Both the position numbers and the translations under genes were made by a program. Positions 27,480-51,088 of a stretch of 64,000 nucleotides of DNA are shown here, one piece after another (position 1 is the stretch's first letter; each line of letters starts with the position of its first letter). This DNA comes from Anolis carolinensis (Eukaryota). The DNA lies in assembly GCF_035594765.1 (NCBI RefSeq), contig NC_085841.1, forward strand, positions 316,829,402-316,893,401. The letters run 5' to 3'. The notes under the pieces were generated by a model. The model had not been told where the DNA came from and made no database searches. It saw nothing but the letters and a program-made list of their open reading frames with translations.

Positions 27480-28730
27480 AGGAGAAGGGGAAAAAAAGGA
27501 AGGAAGGACAAGGAGGAAGAAGAGAAGTCCCTCACGCAGGCACAGAGATAGGGAAGGGGCGCAAGAAGGTAGGAGAAGGAGAAGAAAAAAGAGTCCCGTC
27601 ACAGAGCGGGAAGAGGAGAAAGAAGCCAAGAGGAGGAGGTAAAAGAGGATCTTACAGAGAGAATTAAGGAAGGGGAGTAAGAAGCCAGGAGGAGGACACA
27701 GAGAAATAGAAAAGGAGACCAAGAAGCCAGGACGAAGAAGAGTCTCTCACAGAGAGGGAAGAGAAGGGGTGAAAGAAAAAGGAAAAAGAAGAGTCTCTCA
27801 CAAAGAAGGAAGAGGAGAAGGAAGCCAAGAGGAGGAGGAGTATCTTATAGAGAGAACTAAAGAAGCGGAGTAAGAAGCCAGGAGGAGGAAGAGTTCCTCA
27901 CACAGAGAACTAGGGAAGGGGAGCAAGAAGCCAGGAGGACGAAGAACAATCTCCAACAGAGAGAGAAGAGAAGAGGTGAAATAAGCCAGGAGGAGAAAGA
28001 AGAGCCTCTCACAGAGAGAGAAGAGAAGGGGTGAAAGAAGCCAGGAGGAGAAAGAAGAGTCATAGAGAGGGAAGAGAAGAGGTGAAAGAAGCCAAGAGAA
28101 GGATAAAAAAAGGAAAAAGAGAGGGAAAAGGAGGAGAAGCCAAAAGGAAGAGGAAAAAGAGAATCTTATAGAGAGAACTGAGAAAAGGGAGTAAGAAGCC
28201 AGGAGGAGGTGGAGGAAGAGTCCCTTACACAGAACTAGGAAAGGGGATCAAGAAGCCAGGAAAACGAAGAAGAGTCCCTCACAGAGAGGGAAGAGGAGAA
28301 AAAAAGCCAAGAGGAGGAGGAAGAAGTGTATCTCACAGAGGGGGGGGGGGGGGGAGAAACAAGGAGAAAAAGGAAAAAAAGAACAAGAGTCTCTCACAGA
28401 GAGGGAAGAGGAGAAAGATGCCAAGAGGAGGAAGAGGATTTTACAGAGAGAACTAAGGAAGTAGAGCAAGAAGCCAGGAGGAGGTGGAGGAAGAGTCTCT
28501 TACACAGAGAACTAGGAGCAAGAAGCCAGGAGGAGAAAGAAGAGTCTCTCACAGAGAGGGAAGAGAAGGGGAGAAAGAATCCAGAAAGAGAAAAACGGAA
28601 AAGAAGAAGAGTCTCTCACACAGAAGGAAGAGAAGGGGAGAAAGAGGCCAGAAGGAGGAAGAGCCCCTCAGGCATATACAGAGAGATAGGGAAGGGGGGC
28701 AAGAAGCCAGGGGATCAAAAGAAGAACCCC
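27480..28730. repeat. Degenerate polypurine (GA-rich) minisatellite directly upstream of SPRED1 promoter
   Basis: Recurring units such as aagaagccaggagga...agagtctctcacagagagggaagaga, with an extreme purine bias on the + strand over about 1.25 kb. Confidence 0.9.
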
Positions 28731-42100: not shown

Positions 42101-44020
42101 TACGTTTTCAACACAATTAAAGTACAGAATAGTTTCAATGAAGGATGATCAATATGTGGCCCTCCAGGTAATGATGGATTACAATGGTCATTGTTCTTCA
42201 TCATGACTATCCTAGCTAGGGCTGTTTGGTTTTGCAGTCTAGGGGCATCCGGTGGGCCAAAAGCTGCCCATCCCTTGTTTAACTAAATCAGAAATAATGT
42301 GTTCTACATATTGTTTATATATCTTACTGAATTGTCAGATGTCATCAGGCCTTAGTGAGTCTGAAACCTTGTGTATGTTGTCATATTTCAGTATTCAGTA
42401 TAAAGGAGGCATGCATTTAGGCACTGACATCTTCCAGACCCATTTTACCTTTTCCATGTTTTTTGATCAGGAGCAGGGTGGACTTCAGTACTGGGGGACC
42501 AAGATATCAAACTGATGTGTAAATGTGTGCTTTTCAACCCCCTATTCATTTAGGGGTTTTAAAGTGTGAATTCTAAATATTGTCACATTATGTACGGGGT
42601 GTGGGTTCCATTAATTAAAGGTAGTTTCTCTTAGAACTTTATTGCATGAGGCTGATGAACCAGTACTGCAGCAATCAAAAGTGGATTATGAGAATATTTA
42701 AAATGAATTTGGTCTTGTTTTCTAGAGAGTGGGGGCATGAAGCATGAGGCCTTGAGAGCTTTCATTGAAGGCATGATATCAGGTTTTAAACCAAATAATA
42801 GATATAATGCAGAAAAAGAGTATTAATATTAGCCACATGGAAGTGCTAATTACTGGTAGTGTGATTAGAAAAGGAGTCTTCTGCTTTTTGACAGTGGATA
42901 ATATTTCAGCATCTTGATTCATATTTTTCTTCTAAGAAACACCATATTGCTTTGACTTGCCCTGAGCTACTAAAGGAATGATAAAGAAATTGGTTCACCT
43001 AAATCCTTTATACTTAATACCTATTTTCCAAGTCCATTAAGTATAAATGATCTATTTTGAAAAGCAGAATTCCAGGAAAGCTCTTAATTTTCCCATGATG
43101 ACTGATGTATTTGGAGCATTTTTTTCAGTGCATGCTTATATGCTAGCCTATCCATCTGACATGAACTTAGTAATTAATTTTTCAAATGGCTTCTTCAGAA
43201 ATATCTTCAGGACCTCATGAAGGTCTCTAAACTATCAGTATTAGAGAACTGAAGTAGGATGTTTGGGGGAAATCAAATACATCCAACTGTTTACATTTAT
43301 GCAGATAATACCTTCCCTCTTGTAATTCTCCCTATATGACACATGATATTAAAATGAAATGCTATCATTAAAATTAAACATCTTTTAGAAACATAACAAG
43401 AAAGGAGTGAAGTACTCTGCTCCCATCACAAGTCCTTTAGCAATTATTAGTAGCTAAAAGCTATCAAAATTAAAAGATCATTATGAATGGGAATAAAGAA
43501 AGTACCAAACTTTCTTGCAACCAAAGGGTGTTTTGTAGCCTGGGAACAGCCACCAGCAAGACCTTCTCCCACGTCTTCATCAAAAGTGCCTGTGAAGGTA
43601 GTGAGAACAAGGGAAAGCCCTCCCCTAACTATCTCAAAGTTTAGCCAGCCTCGTAGAAGGCGACATAATATTTCAGACAGACTGGTCACAGAGTGTATCT
43701 ACGATTTTGCAGTAGTATGTTTTGCAATACAGCAGACTTGGAGAACTGCTGTGTATTGTTGCACATATCCACAAGAACAAAACTAAATGGGGAAATACTA
43801 GATGGGGTTGAGAAAGATTGTGATTATCCTTAAGGGCAGGAGTGGACAAAGTCTAGCTTTAAGGCTCGATGCAGCACCAAGGCTATTTTTGCACCCATCC
43901 TGGACACTCCCAATGCTCTCCTGTTTTAGTAACAAGGAGATGTTCATTTGCCCCTTCTGAATGTTAGTAGGAATATGTGTTTTACCACTACTGCAATAAC
44001 AGTGATGTACTTGTTCAGCA

Positions 44021-44341
44021 GGAGCCCCGGTGGCGAAGTGCGTTAAAGCACTGAGCTGGAGAACGAAAGATCCCAGGTTTAAACCCTGGGAGCGGCGGGA
44101 GCGGCCGCTATTAGCTCCAGCTCCTGCCAACCTAGCAGTTCGAAAACATGCCAATGTGAGTAGATCAATAGGTACCGCTCCGGCGGGAAGGTAACAACGC
44201 TCTGTGCAGTCATGCTGGCCACATGACCTTGGAGGTGTCTATAGACAATGCCGGCTCTTCGGCTTAGAAATTGAGATGAGCACCAACCCCCAGAGTCAGA
44301 CATGACTGGACTTAATGTCAGGGGAAACCTTTACCTTTACC
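44021..44341 (+). mobile_element. Sauria-type tRNA-derived SINE, full length
   Basis: tRNA-like head, (ACCTTT)n tail, and a 13-bp TSD, TACTTGTTCAGCA. Confidence 0.92.
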
Positions 44342-45109
44342 TACTTGTTCAGCAGGGAGTAGAATCGTGGTCTAGAATAATAGCTGTATATTTCATGGTC
44401 AGTACAGTAGAACTGTGACCTAGTGTTGTAAAATATTATAAATTCTTGCTCCCTGATCCCAGAAAATATTATAAATTCTGCTCCCTGATCCCAGAAGGGC
44501 AGTTGGTTCTCGCAGAAGCAGAGGCAGCAGGAGGACATTTTTGCTCCCTGGCTTCAGGTAGGATTTGGCTAAGATTTTAAACTGAGTGTGGGCTTGGCTC
44601 CTGTGGTCAAAGTCTAACTGTTGTGTGACTGTTGTGTTGAAAGAGAGCCAGGTACTTAAGTTGATTGACAGCAGGCATTGTCCCCTGTTAATTGAGTTTC
44701 TGGGAAAGCTTTATTTGCCAGTGTGAGTTTCTGCCAGAGCCTGATCCCAGAAGGGCAGTTGGTTCTCGCAGAAGCAGAGGCAGCAGGAGGACATTTTTGC
44801 TCCCTGGCTTCAGGTAGGATTTGGCTAAGATTTGGCTAAGATTTTAAACTGAGTGTGGGCTTGGCTCCTGTGGTCAAAGTCTAACTGTTGTGTGACTGTT
44901 GTGTTGAAAGAGAGCCAGGTACTTAAGTTGATTGACAGCAGGCATTGTCCCCTAAGGCACCTTTACTAACTATCCTTTGCAGTACATACAGGAAACAAAG
45001 CAACATAAACAAATACACAAAGAGGTGGTTTGTTGCAGTTTGCACATAAAGTGCGTGCATATTACTTAACTGTACAAAGATCCCACTTGGCCACCACGCT
45101 CACCAAGAG

Positions 45110-46381
45110 ATGCAACAAAAGCAAAACATTCCCATCACATGCACCAGCTGTGGCATGTTCCACTTTTTCACACAAAAACTAGACAACTACATCTGCTCCA
45201 AATGCAAACAGATGACTTTGATGGAGCAGAGGATCCAACAGCTCGAGCACCGTATTAAGACCCTTAAGGACATTCAGGCACTCGAGCTCTTCTTGGACAC
45301 TGCACAACACACTGTTGTAGATCAGCAGCCTGCATCACACCAACACCACCAAGACCATGATCAGGAACCTTATGGGGAGATCAACTCAAAGGTAGACAAC
45401 CCTCAGGCTTGGAAGGAGGTCACCCATAGAAGGAGACGCAGGACCAGGCAGCCTCCGCAGAACTCCTCTGCTCAGCTGCATTTACACAACAGATTTGAAA
45501 TTCTTACATCATTAACATACAATCAGGAAACACATCTTGTGGAGGACCACAGTTTCTTAGATACCACTCAGTGGACCACCCTGGATCAATGCGCAGGGGA
45601 TAGCCCTGATGGGGACAGTGCATCACCACAGTCACACTTATGTAATCATGCAAATGCTCCATCCCCAATCATAGACCAGGAGCAACAGGAACATCCTTGG
45701 GAGAGTAATGGGCTCTCGGATGTATCTCAATGGATTGTCATTGATGAATGCACTGGGGATGTTGAGGAGGAGGACAACACTTTACACCTACATGATTCAC
45801 TTCAACAGGAACACTCTTCAGGGGACATGCACACTGTCTTGCACAAAAGGGACCCTGTCAATACTCAAAGGAAACAGGTCTTGGTAGTAGGTGACTCCCT
45901 CCTTAGAGGAACGGAAGCCATCATTTCCAGACCGGATGGGATGGCTCGAGAAACATGCTGCCTCCCGGGGGCAAAAATACACCATATCACTCAGAGGCTC
46001 AGCAGGCTCCTAAAGCCCCATCACCCTCCCCACCTTATGTTGATTCATGTAGGTACCAATGACACCGCTAGGCATACTTTTCAAAAGATCACAAATGATT
46101 TTCGAGCTCTGGGAACAAAGCTAAAACTGTGTAATGTACATGTGATCTTTTCATCCCTCCTCCCCGTTGTAGGACACGGCTCTACAAGGGCCGGAAAAAT
46201 AGTACAGGTCAATAACTGGCTCAGAAAATGGTGTCAAGAGGAGCATTTTGGCTTCCTTGACCATGGTCTACTCTTCCAAGAGGATGGACTACTGGCAAGC
46301 GATGGGGTGCATCTCACACAAGTAGGAAAACATCTTTTTGCACACAGACTCACAAACCTCATCAGGCGCACTTTAAACTAG
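45110..46381 (+). CDS. CR1 ORF1p (Zn finger, coiled coil, SGNH/GDSL esterase-like domain)
   Basis: 423 aa with CTSC...CSKC, heptad leucines, and SGNH blocks [15 protein letters not shown] and DGVHL. Confidence 0.92.
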
Positions 46382-49289
46382 ATCCACTGGGGGAGGGGAA
46401 CAACAGCCTGGCGAACACTATATTACCCACGACCACAGGGAACCGCCAAAAGGCTAAACGGAGGGCTGCACAAACACAGCAAGGACCAAGTACAGAGAGC
46501 ACAATAATCCCAAATAAACAGTTCGAGGGGAGGTCACAGGGGCTTACATGTCTTTACACTAATGCTCAGAGCATGGGAAATAAGCAAGACGAACTCCAAC
46601 TCCTAGCACAGCACCACAAATACGATGTCATAGGCATCACTGAAACCTGGTGGGATGACTCCCATCACTGGAATTTAACCATTGAGGGCTATAAACTCTT
46701 TCACAGAAATAGAACAAAGGGGAGAGGAGGGGGAGTAGCTTTATATGTCAAAAACAGTTACGTTGCAGAAGAAATGCAAGACTGTAATCCGGGAAACCAG
46801 CTTGAAAGCATCTGGATAAGAATAAAGGGAACCGGGACTCAAAAGGATCTTGTCGTGGGTGTCTACTACAGACCTCCGAGTCAGGATGAAGGACTTGATG
46901 AAGCCTTCTGTCAACAGCTGACCAAACAGGCACAAAGAAGAGATATAGTAGTCATGGGCGATTTCAATTATCCCGATATCTGCTGGAAAACAAACTCAGC
47001 CAAGAGTACAAAGTCCAACAAATTCCTCACTTGCCTTGCAGATAATTTTATGGTCCAGAAGGTAGAAGAGACAACAAGGGGATCAGCAACTCTTGATCTA
47101 ATCTTAACAAATGTGGAAGACCTGATCAATACAGTTGAAGTGGTTGGATCCTTAGGGGCAAGTGACCATGTGCTCCTGCAGTTTGCAATACAAAGGAATG
47201 CTGAAACTAAGACAAGTCAAACACGCATTCTGGACTTTAAGAGAGCTGACTTCCAAAAAATGAAGGAATTACTGAGCGGCATTCCATGGACGCCGATATT
47301 AAAAAACAAGGGAGTTAAGGATGGATGGGAGTTTTTCAAAAGTGAAATACTCAAGGCGCAAATGCAAACAGTGCCAACAAAGAAGAAAAATAAGACAAGT
47401 GCAAAGAAGCCAGAATGGATGTCCAAAGAACTTCTAACTGAGCTAAAGCTCAAAAGTGACATGCACAAGAAGTGGAAAAGGGAAGAAATCACCAAAGAAG
47501 AATTCAAATGTATAGCCAACACCTGTAGGGAAAAGGTTCGCAAGGCTAAAGCGCAAAATGAGCTCAGGCTTGCCAGGGACGTAAAAAACAACAAAAAAGG
47601 CTTTTTTGCTTACGTTGGTAGAAAAAGGAAGAAAAAGGAGGCGATAGGGCCATTGCAAGGAGAAGATGGGGTGATGGCGACAGGGGACAGGGAAAAAGCA
47701 GAACTACTTAATGCCTTCTTTGCCTCGGTCTTCTCAGAAAAAGAAAGCCATCTTCAACCTCAGCAACATGGAATGGACGAAGGATTGGGGGAAATTCAAC
47801 CCCAAATAGGGAAACAAGTTGTCCAGGAACACCTGGCCACTCTAAACGAATTCAAGTCCCCAGGGCCAGATCAGCTACATCCAAGAGTACTGAAGGAACT
47901 AGCGGAAGTTATTTCAGAACCACTGGCAATTATCTTCGAGAGTTCTTGGAGAACGGGAGAAGTCCCAGCAGATTGGAGGAGGGCGAATGTGGACCCTATC
48001 TTCAAGAAGGGAAAAAAGAACGACCCAAACAATTACCGTCCGGTCAGCCTCACATCAATACCAGGCAAAATTCTGGAAAAGATCATTAAGGAAGTGGTCT
48101 GCGAACACTTAGAAACAAATGCGGTCATGGCTAATAGTCAACACGGATTTACCAAAAACAAGTCATGCCAGACTAATCTGATCTCTTTTTTCGATAGAGT
48201 TACGAGTTGGGTCGATACAGGGAATGCTGTGGATGTAGCGTACCTGGATTTCAGTAAGGCCTTCGACAAAGTCCCCCACGACCTTCTGGCAAACAAACTA
48301 GTAAAATGTGGGCTAGACAAAACTACGGTTAGGTGGATCTGTAATTGGCTAAGCGAACGAACCCAAAGGGTGCTCACCAATGTGTCGTCTTCATCATGGA
48401 AAGAAGTGACAAGTGGAGAGCCGCAGGGTTCCGTCCTGGGCCCGGTTCTGTTCAACATCTTTATTAACGACTTAGACGAAGTTAGTTTGCAGACGACACA
48501 AAACTGGGAGGGATAGCTAACACTCCAGAAGACAGGAGCAGAATTCAAAATGATCTTGACAGACTAGAGAGATGGGCCAAAATTAACAAAATGAAGTTCA
48601 ACAGGGACAAATGCAAGATACTTCACTTCGGCAGAAAAAATGGAAATCAAAGATACAGAATGGGGGACGCCTGGCTTGACAGCAGTGTGTGCGAAAAAGA
48701 CCTTGGAGTCCTTGTGGACAACAAGTTAAACATGAGCCAACAATGTGATGCGGCTGCTAAAAAAGCCAATGGGATTCTGGCCTGCATCAATAGGGGAATA
48801 GCGTCTAGATCCAGGGAAGTTATGCTCCCCCTCTATTCTGCCTTGGTCAGACCACACCTGGAATACTGTGTCCAATTTTGGGCACCACAGTTGAAGGGAG
48901 ATGTTGACAAGCTGGAAAGCGTCCAGAGGAGGGCGACTAAAATGATTAAGGGTCTGGAGAACAAGCCCTATGAGGAGCGGCTTAAAGAGCTGGGCATGTT
49001 TAGCCTGCAGAAGAGAAGGCTGAGAGGAGACATGATAGCCATGTACAAATACATGAAGGGAAGTCATAGGAAGGAGGGAGCAAGCTTGTTTTCTGCTGCC
49101 CTGCAGACTAGGACACGGAACAATGGCTTCAAACTACAGGAAAGGAGATTCCACCTGAACATCAGGAAGAACTTCCTCACTGTGAGAGCTGTTCGACAGT
49201 GGAACTCTCTCCCCGGGGCCGTGGTGGAGGCTCCTTCTTTGGAGGCTTTTAAGCAGAGGCTGGATGGCCATCTGTCAGGGGTGCTTTGA
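46381..49289 (+). pseudogene. CR1 ORF2 (APE endonuclease + reverse transcriptase), frameshifted near 48480
   Basis: APE motifs LYTNAQS, GITETW, GDFN and SDH; RT motifs [17 protein letters not shown] and [12 protein letters not shown] (48486-48497) is in a different frame from the upstream RT and continues into ORF 48591-49289, consistent with a small deletion. Confidence 0.93.
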
Positions 49290-51088
49290 ATGTGATTTCC
49301 TGCTTCTTAGCAGGGGGTTGGACTAGATGGCCCATGTGGTCTTTTCCAACTCTACTATTCTATGATTCTATGATTCTATGATTCTATGCTGTTGTCCACT
49401 AAGCTTGTGGCTTTTGTGGAATATTGACGGTGTCAGCTTATGCAGAGATACAGCCAGTGATTATACTTCTTAAAGAAATAGACAATTTATTTTCCAAGTG
49501 CTATATCATATGACTCTAGCTGGTAAGAAACTCTATCCTCAATTAGCAACTGCTGCCCATTACCAATTACATACACATCTGCACAGATCTCAGCACTTAT
49601 GTTCATAAAACACTGTGGTTTCTTGCTCTTAAAAATATAGGTCAGTTTGACCTTTGGCATGCTCTAATACTTAGGGAACACAGGAATCTTCATTTCTGTA
49701 TATTTCCTCTAGCTACTAAAACTGACATTTATTTTAAATTGGTCATTATTAAACATACTGGCCCATTAGGATAAGAAGAAAGGGTTCAGATATATATTTC
49801 TTAAACTCCAAGCTTAAAAAGTTAACTTTGAAGAATAAACATAAATGCTGAAGCCGTGGTGGTAATATGGTGCTCAAGCGCCAACATGTTGTAGTGGTTT
49901 GAGCAGTGGACTACAATTCTGGAGACCAGGGTTCAATCTTCCCACTTGGTATGTAAACCAACTGGATGGCTTTAGATGAGTCGCACACACTCAGGTCATA
50001 AAATCCTGTTCTGTAAAGAAAAGTTTCACTTTCCTGAATCTGGGTGCAGTTCTACACAGAGGGCATAGAATGGCTCGAAGGCAGGGTGCCTACAAATTAT
50101 ACACTCTCAATGTGCACTCCAATGCATGTTAAAAGTGATACAATACTTTTTAAAAGTCCCAGAAAATTCCAAGTTCTTTTTTAAAAAGTGCTGCAGCTGA
50201 TTCCAATGCATCCCATATCCAGGGCGATATCAGCTGTGCAAAATGTGGAGATCATTTTAGACAACCGCCCCTGTTGAAGCACAGTAAAAGATCCTAAATG
50301 GGGGCTGGGTTGCCAAAAATGCCCCAAGGGCAGAAAGGGTAATTGATTTTGTCTGTTTCTGCCTATCACTTCCCCTTTTTTCATCCTGTATGCCTCTGGT
50401 GCACAGATGCTCATCTCTGCAGGAAATGGAAAGAATCCTGCAAAACAGTTTGAGACCATGTTCTGTGTTCAATGCAATCACCTTCCTGGCCTCAGACTTG
50501 TTCTAGACATGTCAATATAATCACCCCACATCAAAACAGGTTCTTTTTATTCCACTTTGAAACTGGATTATAGTGCTTTAATGGACTGCCCTGGGTCATC
50601 AAATTTAACAGTGAACCAGACAGTTACCAACTAGTTGTTTACTTAGCTTTGAAGCAGAGCTTGGAATGTTAAGTCATAGTAACATAGAATTGGAAGGTGC
50701 CCGATCATGTCCAACCCTCTGTTCAGTGTAGGATATCCAGCTAAAGCATTCTCAACAGGTAGATAGATGTTCAACTTCTTTGTGAAAATGCCCACTGAAT
50801 TCTGTTGAATCTAACATTAAATTAGTTATTGTTGACCTTTAGGTATTGGAGAGATTTATTTGCTGCCTAGATAGTGATAATTGAAATCCTTACATTAATT
50901 TAGTTGTATTGACTAAAAGACTACTTAAATGATTAGTGTTTTGGTGTGGGGAATACCTGGAGCTTAAAGAGAATGGTGTAGAGGTAAGACACTTTCACAC
51001 TACATAATTATAGCAGTCTGATATCATTTATCAGGCATATCTACATCCGATGCAATATTGGAACATATAGTTTGATGAGGCACTAGAG

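Follow-up and report, generated by a model that had tools for sequence, protein, structure and literature searches.

How the second open reading frame (ORF2) of a CR1 long interspersed nuclear element (LINE) is translated when no start codon precedes its endonuclease is the question raised by a copy of this element in a 64,000-nt stretch of the Anolis carolinensis genome (GCF_035594765.1, NC_085841.1:316,829,402-316,893,401, forward strand). This whole stretch is called the window hereafter, and all coordinates are positions within it. An earlier note on its sequence had suggested that a -1 frameshift at the end of ORF1 yields an ORF1-ORF2 fusion, an interpretation that is supported by our checks of AUG codons, synonymous codons and reading frame. 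As judged from these sequence comparisons, the CR1 LINE quite probably makes ORF2 by programmed -1 ribosomal frameshifting at a conserved U_UUA_AAC heptamer, as a minor ORF1-ORF2 fusion product. The translation of LINE ORF2 is settled for few elements only, with reinitiation as the reviewed answer, and CR1 makes up about 12% of the chicken genome according to PMC11835228.

The heptamer at the end of ORF1

Every coordinate given for the junction by the earlier note proved correct on re-reading of the sequence. ORF1 ends in ACT TTA AAC TAG, which places TTTAAAC in X_XXY_YYZ phase directly before the stop codon (Table 1), and the -1 frame, open from 46261 to 48516, encodes an apurinic endonuclease (APE) domain and a reverse transcriptase (RT) domain. 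Its first ATG behind the TGA at 46258-46260 is indeed the one at 46573, while a single earlier ATG of this frame, at 46228, is closed off by the same TGA. Phased slippery heptamers occupy one of the 423 ORF1 codon positions versus 8 of 703 in the ORF2 frame. Because the chance rate taken from the ORF2 frame is about 1% per codon position, the site alone is weak, and it is conservation that carries the claim. Between 45110 and 46371, ORF1 holds no phased heptamer besides the terminal one, about five being expected at the ORF2-frame rate; non-terminal phased heptamers in ORF1 may be avoided.

Of the young-family locus records in the lizard genome (not de-duplicated, so that a few copies occur twice), 104 of 105 have the exact heptamer, as do 29 of 30 members of an older predecessor subfamily. 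Across 30 copies of one ancient lizard family, the heptamer letters form the majority at all seven columns (72-100%). Pattern searches in which the synonymous heptamer bases were left free recovered ancient families; the first of them returned six matches from the own genome, all of them slippery, whereas none of four chance matches in prokaryote and viral contigs was. A second pattern search gave 14 matches, two of which duplicated earlier ones and one of which (L149) was dropped as a probable chance match, and the heptamer was exact in 6 of the other 11. When the own genome was searched with a distant CR1 protein and with one of L2 type, the results, as far as inspected, were the young family once more; 15 loci from such a protein search are counted within the 105 records, and the search with the L2-type protein provided no L2 comparison at the DNA level.

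For a wider comparison, a metagenome scan yielded 46 CR1 loci with 32-46% identity over the longer matches, termed bird-type here from their resemblance to stork, wader and duck proteins. The junction was examined in 18 of them, as 28 ended earlier or matched neither the ORF1 end nor ORF2. After L074 was dropped as mislocated, the remaining bird-type loci and 18 lizard loci gave a set of 35 junctions spanning four lizard groups and the bird-type CR1s at about 40% protein identity. Of these junctions, 26 have the exact heptamer, eight differ from it by one base and one differs by two, and none of the nine inexact cases has an unbroken path to the endonuclease. A T precedes the Leu codon in 33 of 35 junctions, and this codon reads TTA in 31 of 35, compared with 7% TTA elsewhere. 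The Z base varies between C, U and A, and the stop codon is TAG in 15, TGA in 12, TAA in 5 and mutated in 3 junctions; variation of this kind is what tandem slippage allows. The view in the earlier note that other CR1 ORF1s end alike is borne out by lizard and bird-type junctions. The motif scored by our junction finder included the heptamer, and for 13 bird-type loci a protein alignment independently placed the junction at the same position. Behind the ORF1 stop, the first base is a purine in 33 and the second base T in 26 of the 35 junctions, which suggests that the stop context of CR1 ORF1 is tight.

Synonymous variation of the Leu codon would have spoken against frameshifting, and neither this codon nor the preceding third base varies in that way. 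The test covered 24 of the 35 loci, the other 11 (4 with an inexact heptamer) being omitted for poor ORF1 alignment. The third base before Leu is T in all 24, the residue being Ala, Thr, Ser or Cys, and TTA encodes 22 of 23 Leu residues at the junction versus 25 of 349 elsewhere in the domain. None of the 47 control sites (mean 0.58, maximum 0.89), which share the same relatedness, reaches either heptamer site. The heptamer is hence conserved at synonymous positions beyond the needs of the protein, and the junction signal is real and selected at the nucleotide level.

The same variation bears on two explanations at the RNA level. RNA polymerase could add a base on the T3-A3 run and bring a minority of transcripts into frame, which likewise needs a conserved run before the stop and gives the same fusion. 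The phase of the heptamer and the rule for Z fit tRNA re-pairing and not polymerase stutter, however, and runs of three are short for slippage, which makes transcriptional slippage highly improbable. More improbable still is the use of the ORF1 end as a 3' splice acceptor for a separate ORF2 mRNA: the TAG form does end in AG followed by G-runs, but this AG is not conserved, as 17 of the 35 junctions carry TGA or TAA instead and 17 of about 90 young-family records carry TAA. Among contigs from four sequencing runs of guessed RNA status, one is continuous over 44954-47300, with no indel or joint at the heptamer, which is no evidence on slippage or splicing because contigs drop rare forms.

Distant relatives were compared at the protein level. 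Of 124 esterase-type ORF1 proteins with a complete tail, 51 were left below 60% identity, and 30 of these end in a tripeptide that a phased heptamer can encode, compared with 4-6% for other tripeptides (18 of 31 at 50%). The endings switch among x-L-N, x-G-N, S-K-N and F-F/F-L, and besides U_UUA_AAC they fit the canonical classes G_GGA_AAC, A_AAA_AAC and U_UUU_UUA/C, which match heptamers that a review ranks shiftiest. The residue before L-N can end in U in 23 of 24 proteins; the exception, Glu, fits G_UUA_AAC, the type given for equine arteritis virus. The residue before G-N can end in G in five of five (Fisher p = 0.024 on informative residues, which are not independent). In a tree of 50 distant ORF1 proteins, built without the terminal residues, a vertebrate CR1-like clade ends in L-N throughout (18 of 18) and four L2-type proteins lack L-N. 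A second clade is mixed: L-N ends stand on tails of 27, 32 and 39 residues, two sister proteins close with S-K-N and S-G-N, several others with G-N, and one group has F-F or F-L close to the terminus. The nearly identical ORF1 proteins P0341 and P0342 end in M-F-F and K-G-F-L-G, respectively, both of which fit, at the protein level, a U-run followed by AG as in U_UUU_UUA.

These proteins also allow us to weigh whether ORF1p merely needs a C-terminal Leu-Asn, with inherited codons and an ORF2 started by an unrelated route. The occurrence of x-L-N at the same position in all 18 proteins of the vertebrate clade would agree with such a constraint. It does not account for synonymous bases fixed far above the control sites, for the lack of the ending in the four L2-type esterases, or for other clades that swap to G-N, K-N or F-F with tails of 24 to 39 residues, and we consider it very unlikely as the sole cause.

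Reading frame, start codons and downstream sequence

ORF2 should lie consistently in the -1 frame of ORF1 if the two are joined by a frameshift. All seven junctions with an unbroken path show this arrangement, the endonuclease following 35 to 86 codons downstream, while degraded copies are less consistent (see below). In 12 of the 35 junctions, a -1 frame stop lies no more than three codons upstream of the heptamer, so that entry into the -1 frame must take place at or after the heptamer.

A start codon upstream of the LYTN motif of the endonuclease would offer another route into ORF2. None is found in the common form of either lizard subfamily, although the bird-type CR1s do have one. Where the -1 frame is unbroken as far as the endonuclease motif (96 of 105 records for the young family and 16 of 30 for the predecessor), an in-frame ATG precedes the motif in four and five records, respectively, which we read as post-insertion changes. 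A CUG at 46387 was considered as a start codon and rejected, since CCA CTG of the young family is replaced by CAG CCG in the predecessor subfamily.

The claim that an AUG start would truncate the endonuclease is upheld by an AlphaFold model that covers the -1 frame and begins at the heptamer. Residues 1-55 are of low confidence, a strand at residues 57-64 opens the folded domain, and the first Met is residue 68, behind this core strand. It has matches in the endonucleases of TRAS1 (E 2e-14) and L1 (E 5e-13). All 25 aligned proteins share Asn64, which we take to be the active-site residue equivalent to L1 Asn14. Sequence alignments begin behind the first strand, so that the catalytic role of this Asn is putative and rests on its invariance and on the model. 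The database ORF2 models P0064 and P0066 of this family start at a Met behind the first endonuclease strand and thus lack it. Database gene models of a wall lizard and several birds contain the -1 peptide F-K-L-x-x-x-G-E-G-D/N, and a turtle model its G-E-G-D part, at a distance of 35 to 99 residues from the endonuclease strand that follows. No indel or stop is fixed in the linker between the two lizard subfamilies.

Downstream of the heptamer no clear pseudoknot had been seen, in agreement with our folding of 46340-46480 (z = -0.31). Fourteen loci gave fold z values from -1.84 to +1.8 and no shared helix starting 3-15 nt behind the heptamer, and an Rfam scan of 44000-49500 returned nothing near the gathering score. 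A hairpin about 24 nt behind the stop, seemingly common to lizard and bird, was discarded as it is no stabler than shuffled sequences and lacks a common register. A G-rich motif 10 nt behind the heptamer is conserved, four of its first five positions being G in 28-31 of 34 junctions. The initial G-run persists while the residue changes, which suggests constraint at the RNA level; the later A/G variation falls on third positions of G-E-G-D/N, suggesting constraint at the protein level. We regard the motif as a candidate for either an unstructured stimulator or a constrained peptide. A 3' stem-loop or pseudoknot is normally part of a -1 frameshift signal according to PMC3542737, and PMC5009743 gives precedent for stimulators without pairing inside the mRNA and for spacers of 11-14 nt.

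Several observations weigh against frameshifting and have to be set beside this evidence. The sequences compared are related, so the counts are not independent. The endonuclease motif stands in another frame in five degraded copies; in the ancient lizard family, distances modulo 3 of 0, 1 and 2 occur in 6, 5 and 2 of 13 copies, the -1 frame being free of stops in two of the 13, and the majority-column count is one base off with one column borderline. No stem-loop or pseudoknot lies 5-9 nt downstream, as the canonical type demands. Purifying selection on the linker is weak, with a ratio of nonsynonymous to synonymous changes (pN/pS) of 0.55 in the -1 frame versus 0.91 and 0.77 in the other frames, based on 25 changes and on a comparison whose endonuclease control had a register slip near its end. 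Among the distant ORF1 proteins, 21 of 51 end in a tripeptide that is not compatible, and searches of prokaryote genomes, viral contigs and phage records gave no usable DNA of the distant clades, the G-N, K-N and F-F classes being seen in protein. Finally, an in-frame AUG precedes the endonuclease in all five intact bird-type copies, in four of them as TAG-nn-ATG, many database ORF2 proteins begin at a Met within the linker, and the codon directly before G-E-G is frequently AUG or one base away from it.

The last of these points lead to the main rival, termination-reinitiation, by which ribosomes would restart in the -1 frame a few bases past the ORF1 stop, at AUG or a non-AUG codon, and make a separate ORF2p; the conserved bases would then serve in termination or tethering. 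At +3 to +8 past the stop, codons that are AUG or near-cognate occur frequently, reinitiation is a described LINE mechanism (PMC2881922), L1 initiation is described as AUG-independent (PMC5009743) and UAGnnAUG is a known reinitiation layout, listed for victorivirus. The lack of a frameshift pseudoknot also fits. Reinitiation does not predict fixed X and Y bases with a free Z, however, nor the apparent switching between heptamer classes. Moreover, no start codon is conserved: one stands next to the stop in four of the five intact bird-type copies and in neither lizard subfamily, the predecessor having CAG CCG, and the AUG position varies. Motif 1 of the termination upstream ribosome-binding site (TURBS), defined as UGGGA 40-90 nt upstream of the stop, is absent in the window, and 9 of 35 junctions have UGGGA 25-100 nt upstream. 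On balance frameshifting is more likely and reinitiation as the general route unlikely, while both could operate in bird-type families.

Proposed mechanism and the element in the window

In the frameshifting model most ribosomes would terminate at the ORF1 stop and release ORF1p, while a few would slip back by one base with tRNA-Leu and tRNA-Asn on the heptamer, the share probably being a low percentage because no pseudoknot is present. Shifted ribosomes would pass the stop in the -1 frame, translate about 55 residues of disordered linker and then reach endonuclease and RT. The outcome would be a fusion of about 1,400 aa and a high ORF1p:ORF2p ratio as in Gag and Gag-Pol. The most speculative part is the stimulation of slippage, which might come from the stop next to the heptamer and from the G-rich motif 10 nt behind it, acting as an unstructured or protein-bound element.

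A broader proposal, which we advance tentatively and with more doubt than confidence, is that esterase-type CR1s have made a Gag-Pol-like endonuclease-RT fusion by -1 frameshifting for hundreds of millions of years, swapping at least four canonical heptamers. Vertebrate elements would combine these with a new pseudoknot-free stimulator, formed by the adjacent stop and the G-rich element at 10 nt and perhaps bound by a host protein, and the fusion would tether RT to a particle of esterase-domain ORF1 in cis.

If frameshifting holds true, its conserved site offers a defined and cheaply testable mechanism for ORF2, and nature would supply variants by the thousands for a -1 signal that is apparently structure-free. 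Database ORF2 proteins that begin at the first Met, such as P0064, would miss a core endonuclease strand, and surveys of intact CR1s as well as engineered CR1 constructs should retain the junction.

The element is a CR1 LINE with an esterase-type ORF1, comprising a Cys motif, an SGNH esterase, an ORF2 with APE and RT, and an 8-nt repeat tail. In ORF1 the Cys motif is N-terminal and the esterase C-terminal (Pfam PF13472, E 2e-10; PDB 4C1B, E 3e-23). RT of the window copy has a frame break near 48486-48516, which makes it a dead copy of a recently active family. The closest database proteins show 99% identity and are labelled Anolis carolinensis. The young family is large, with 980 candidates at the DNA level, of which the 40 that were scored are close to 100% identical, and 3,549 at the protein level, and near-identical copies number in the thousands in the Anolis genome.

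Table 1. Features of the CR1 copy and its ORF1/ORF2 junction (positions in the window)
Feature	Positions	Strand	Remarks
CR1 ORF1, 423 aa	45110..46381	+	ATG at 45110; ends Leu-Asn-stop
TGA shutting the -1 frame 5' of the junction	46258..46260	+	cuts off the -1 ATG at 46228
Slippery heptamer U_UUA_AAC	46372..46378	+	X_XXY_YYZ phase with ORF1; from sequence and conservation
ORF1 stop right after the heptamer	46379..46381	+	TAG in this copy; TAA/TGA in relatives
Conserved G-rich motif GGGGGAGGGG	46389..46398	+	10 nt past the heptamer; -1 frame gives G-E-G; no stable fold
-1 frame linker, heptamer to endonuclease	46372..46542	+	no AUG or stop; predicted disordered
First beta-strand of the APE endonuclease	46543..46572	+	invariant Asn at 46561-46563; 5' of the first ATG
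Remainder of ORF2 from the first ATG	46573..48516	+	-1 frame; APE and RT, broken near the end
ORF2 C-terminal part	48486..49289	+	different frame (frame break in the window copy)
CR1-type 3' tail	49357..49388	+	four 8-nt repeats

The 5' region of the CR1 contains a direct duplication of about 200 nt (about 44480-44686 and 44741-44953) and a 32-nt tandem at 44430-44496, and contigs from other samples diverge at 44953/44954. Immediately 5' of the CR1 lies a short GC-rich element (44020-44345), presumably a short interspersed nuclear element (SINE) from its resemblance to this class. Elsewhere in the window, a degenerate tandem repeat at 27600-28600 with a period of about 50 nt, strong purine skew and an AT skew of 0.5 could be a low-complexity acidic coding exon.

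Relation to known systems

The CR1 junction resembles viral -1 sites, namely coronavirus and arterivirus 1a/1b and retroviral gag-pol, in having an X_XXY_YYZ heptamer where an abundant 5' ORF ends and the polymerase follows in the -1 frame; PMC5009743 and PMC3542737 count U_UUA_AAC among the shiftiest sites. In contrast to those sites, it has no stem-loop or pseudoknot 5-9 nt downstream but an unstructured G-rich motif at 10 nt, its host is a non-LTR (long terminal repeat) retrotransposon, and its frameshift is a prediction from sequence. The junction would work like a gag-pol frameshift that lacks the pseudoknot of the canonical type. Precedent for a 3' stimulator without pairing comes from the Semliki Forest virus 6K/TF, arterivirus nsp2 and cardiovirus sites, which PMC5009743 describes as unpaired or protein-stimulated frameshifts. 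The CR1 motif differs from them in being G-rich at 10 nt and in having no known binding protein, and it also fits a constraint on the G-E-G-D/N peptide.

Among LINEs, L1 and SART1 likewise have a bicistronic mRNA and an ORF2 that depends on ORF1 translation, as described in PMC2881922. They make a separate ORF2p, however, whereas lizard CR1 has no AUG before the endonuclease and keeps the heptamer at synonymous sites; the bird-type CR1s share the TAG-nn-ATG layout with reinitiation systems. The earlier note held that characterized LINE ORF2 mechanisms are reinitiation or coupling rather than frameshifting. Both are indeed reviewed, but a review (PMC5911963) states that Dictyostelium TRE5-A and TRE3-A require -1 frameshifting, and CR1 is not the first LINE for which this is claimed. 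Like CR1, the two TRE elements are APE-type non-LTR retrotransposons, though of another LINE clade and with another ORF1. Frameshifting in HeT-A gag is named in PMC5009743, whose accessible text holds no CR1 case.

A full-text literature search found no CR1 ORF1/ORF2 frameshift, an earlier remark in the original CR1 papers being possible, and the words 'frameshift' and 'overlap' are absent from the accessible text of PMC4120745. The CR1 subgroup 7 described there, with a type IVB ORF1 (zinc finger/leucine zipper and esterase), shares the ORF1 architecture, the APE-RT ORF2 and the 8-nt tail of our element. The element itself is an ordinary CR1, and the junction signal is its new part.

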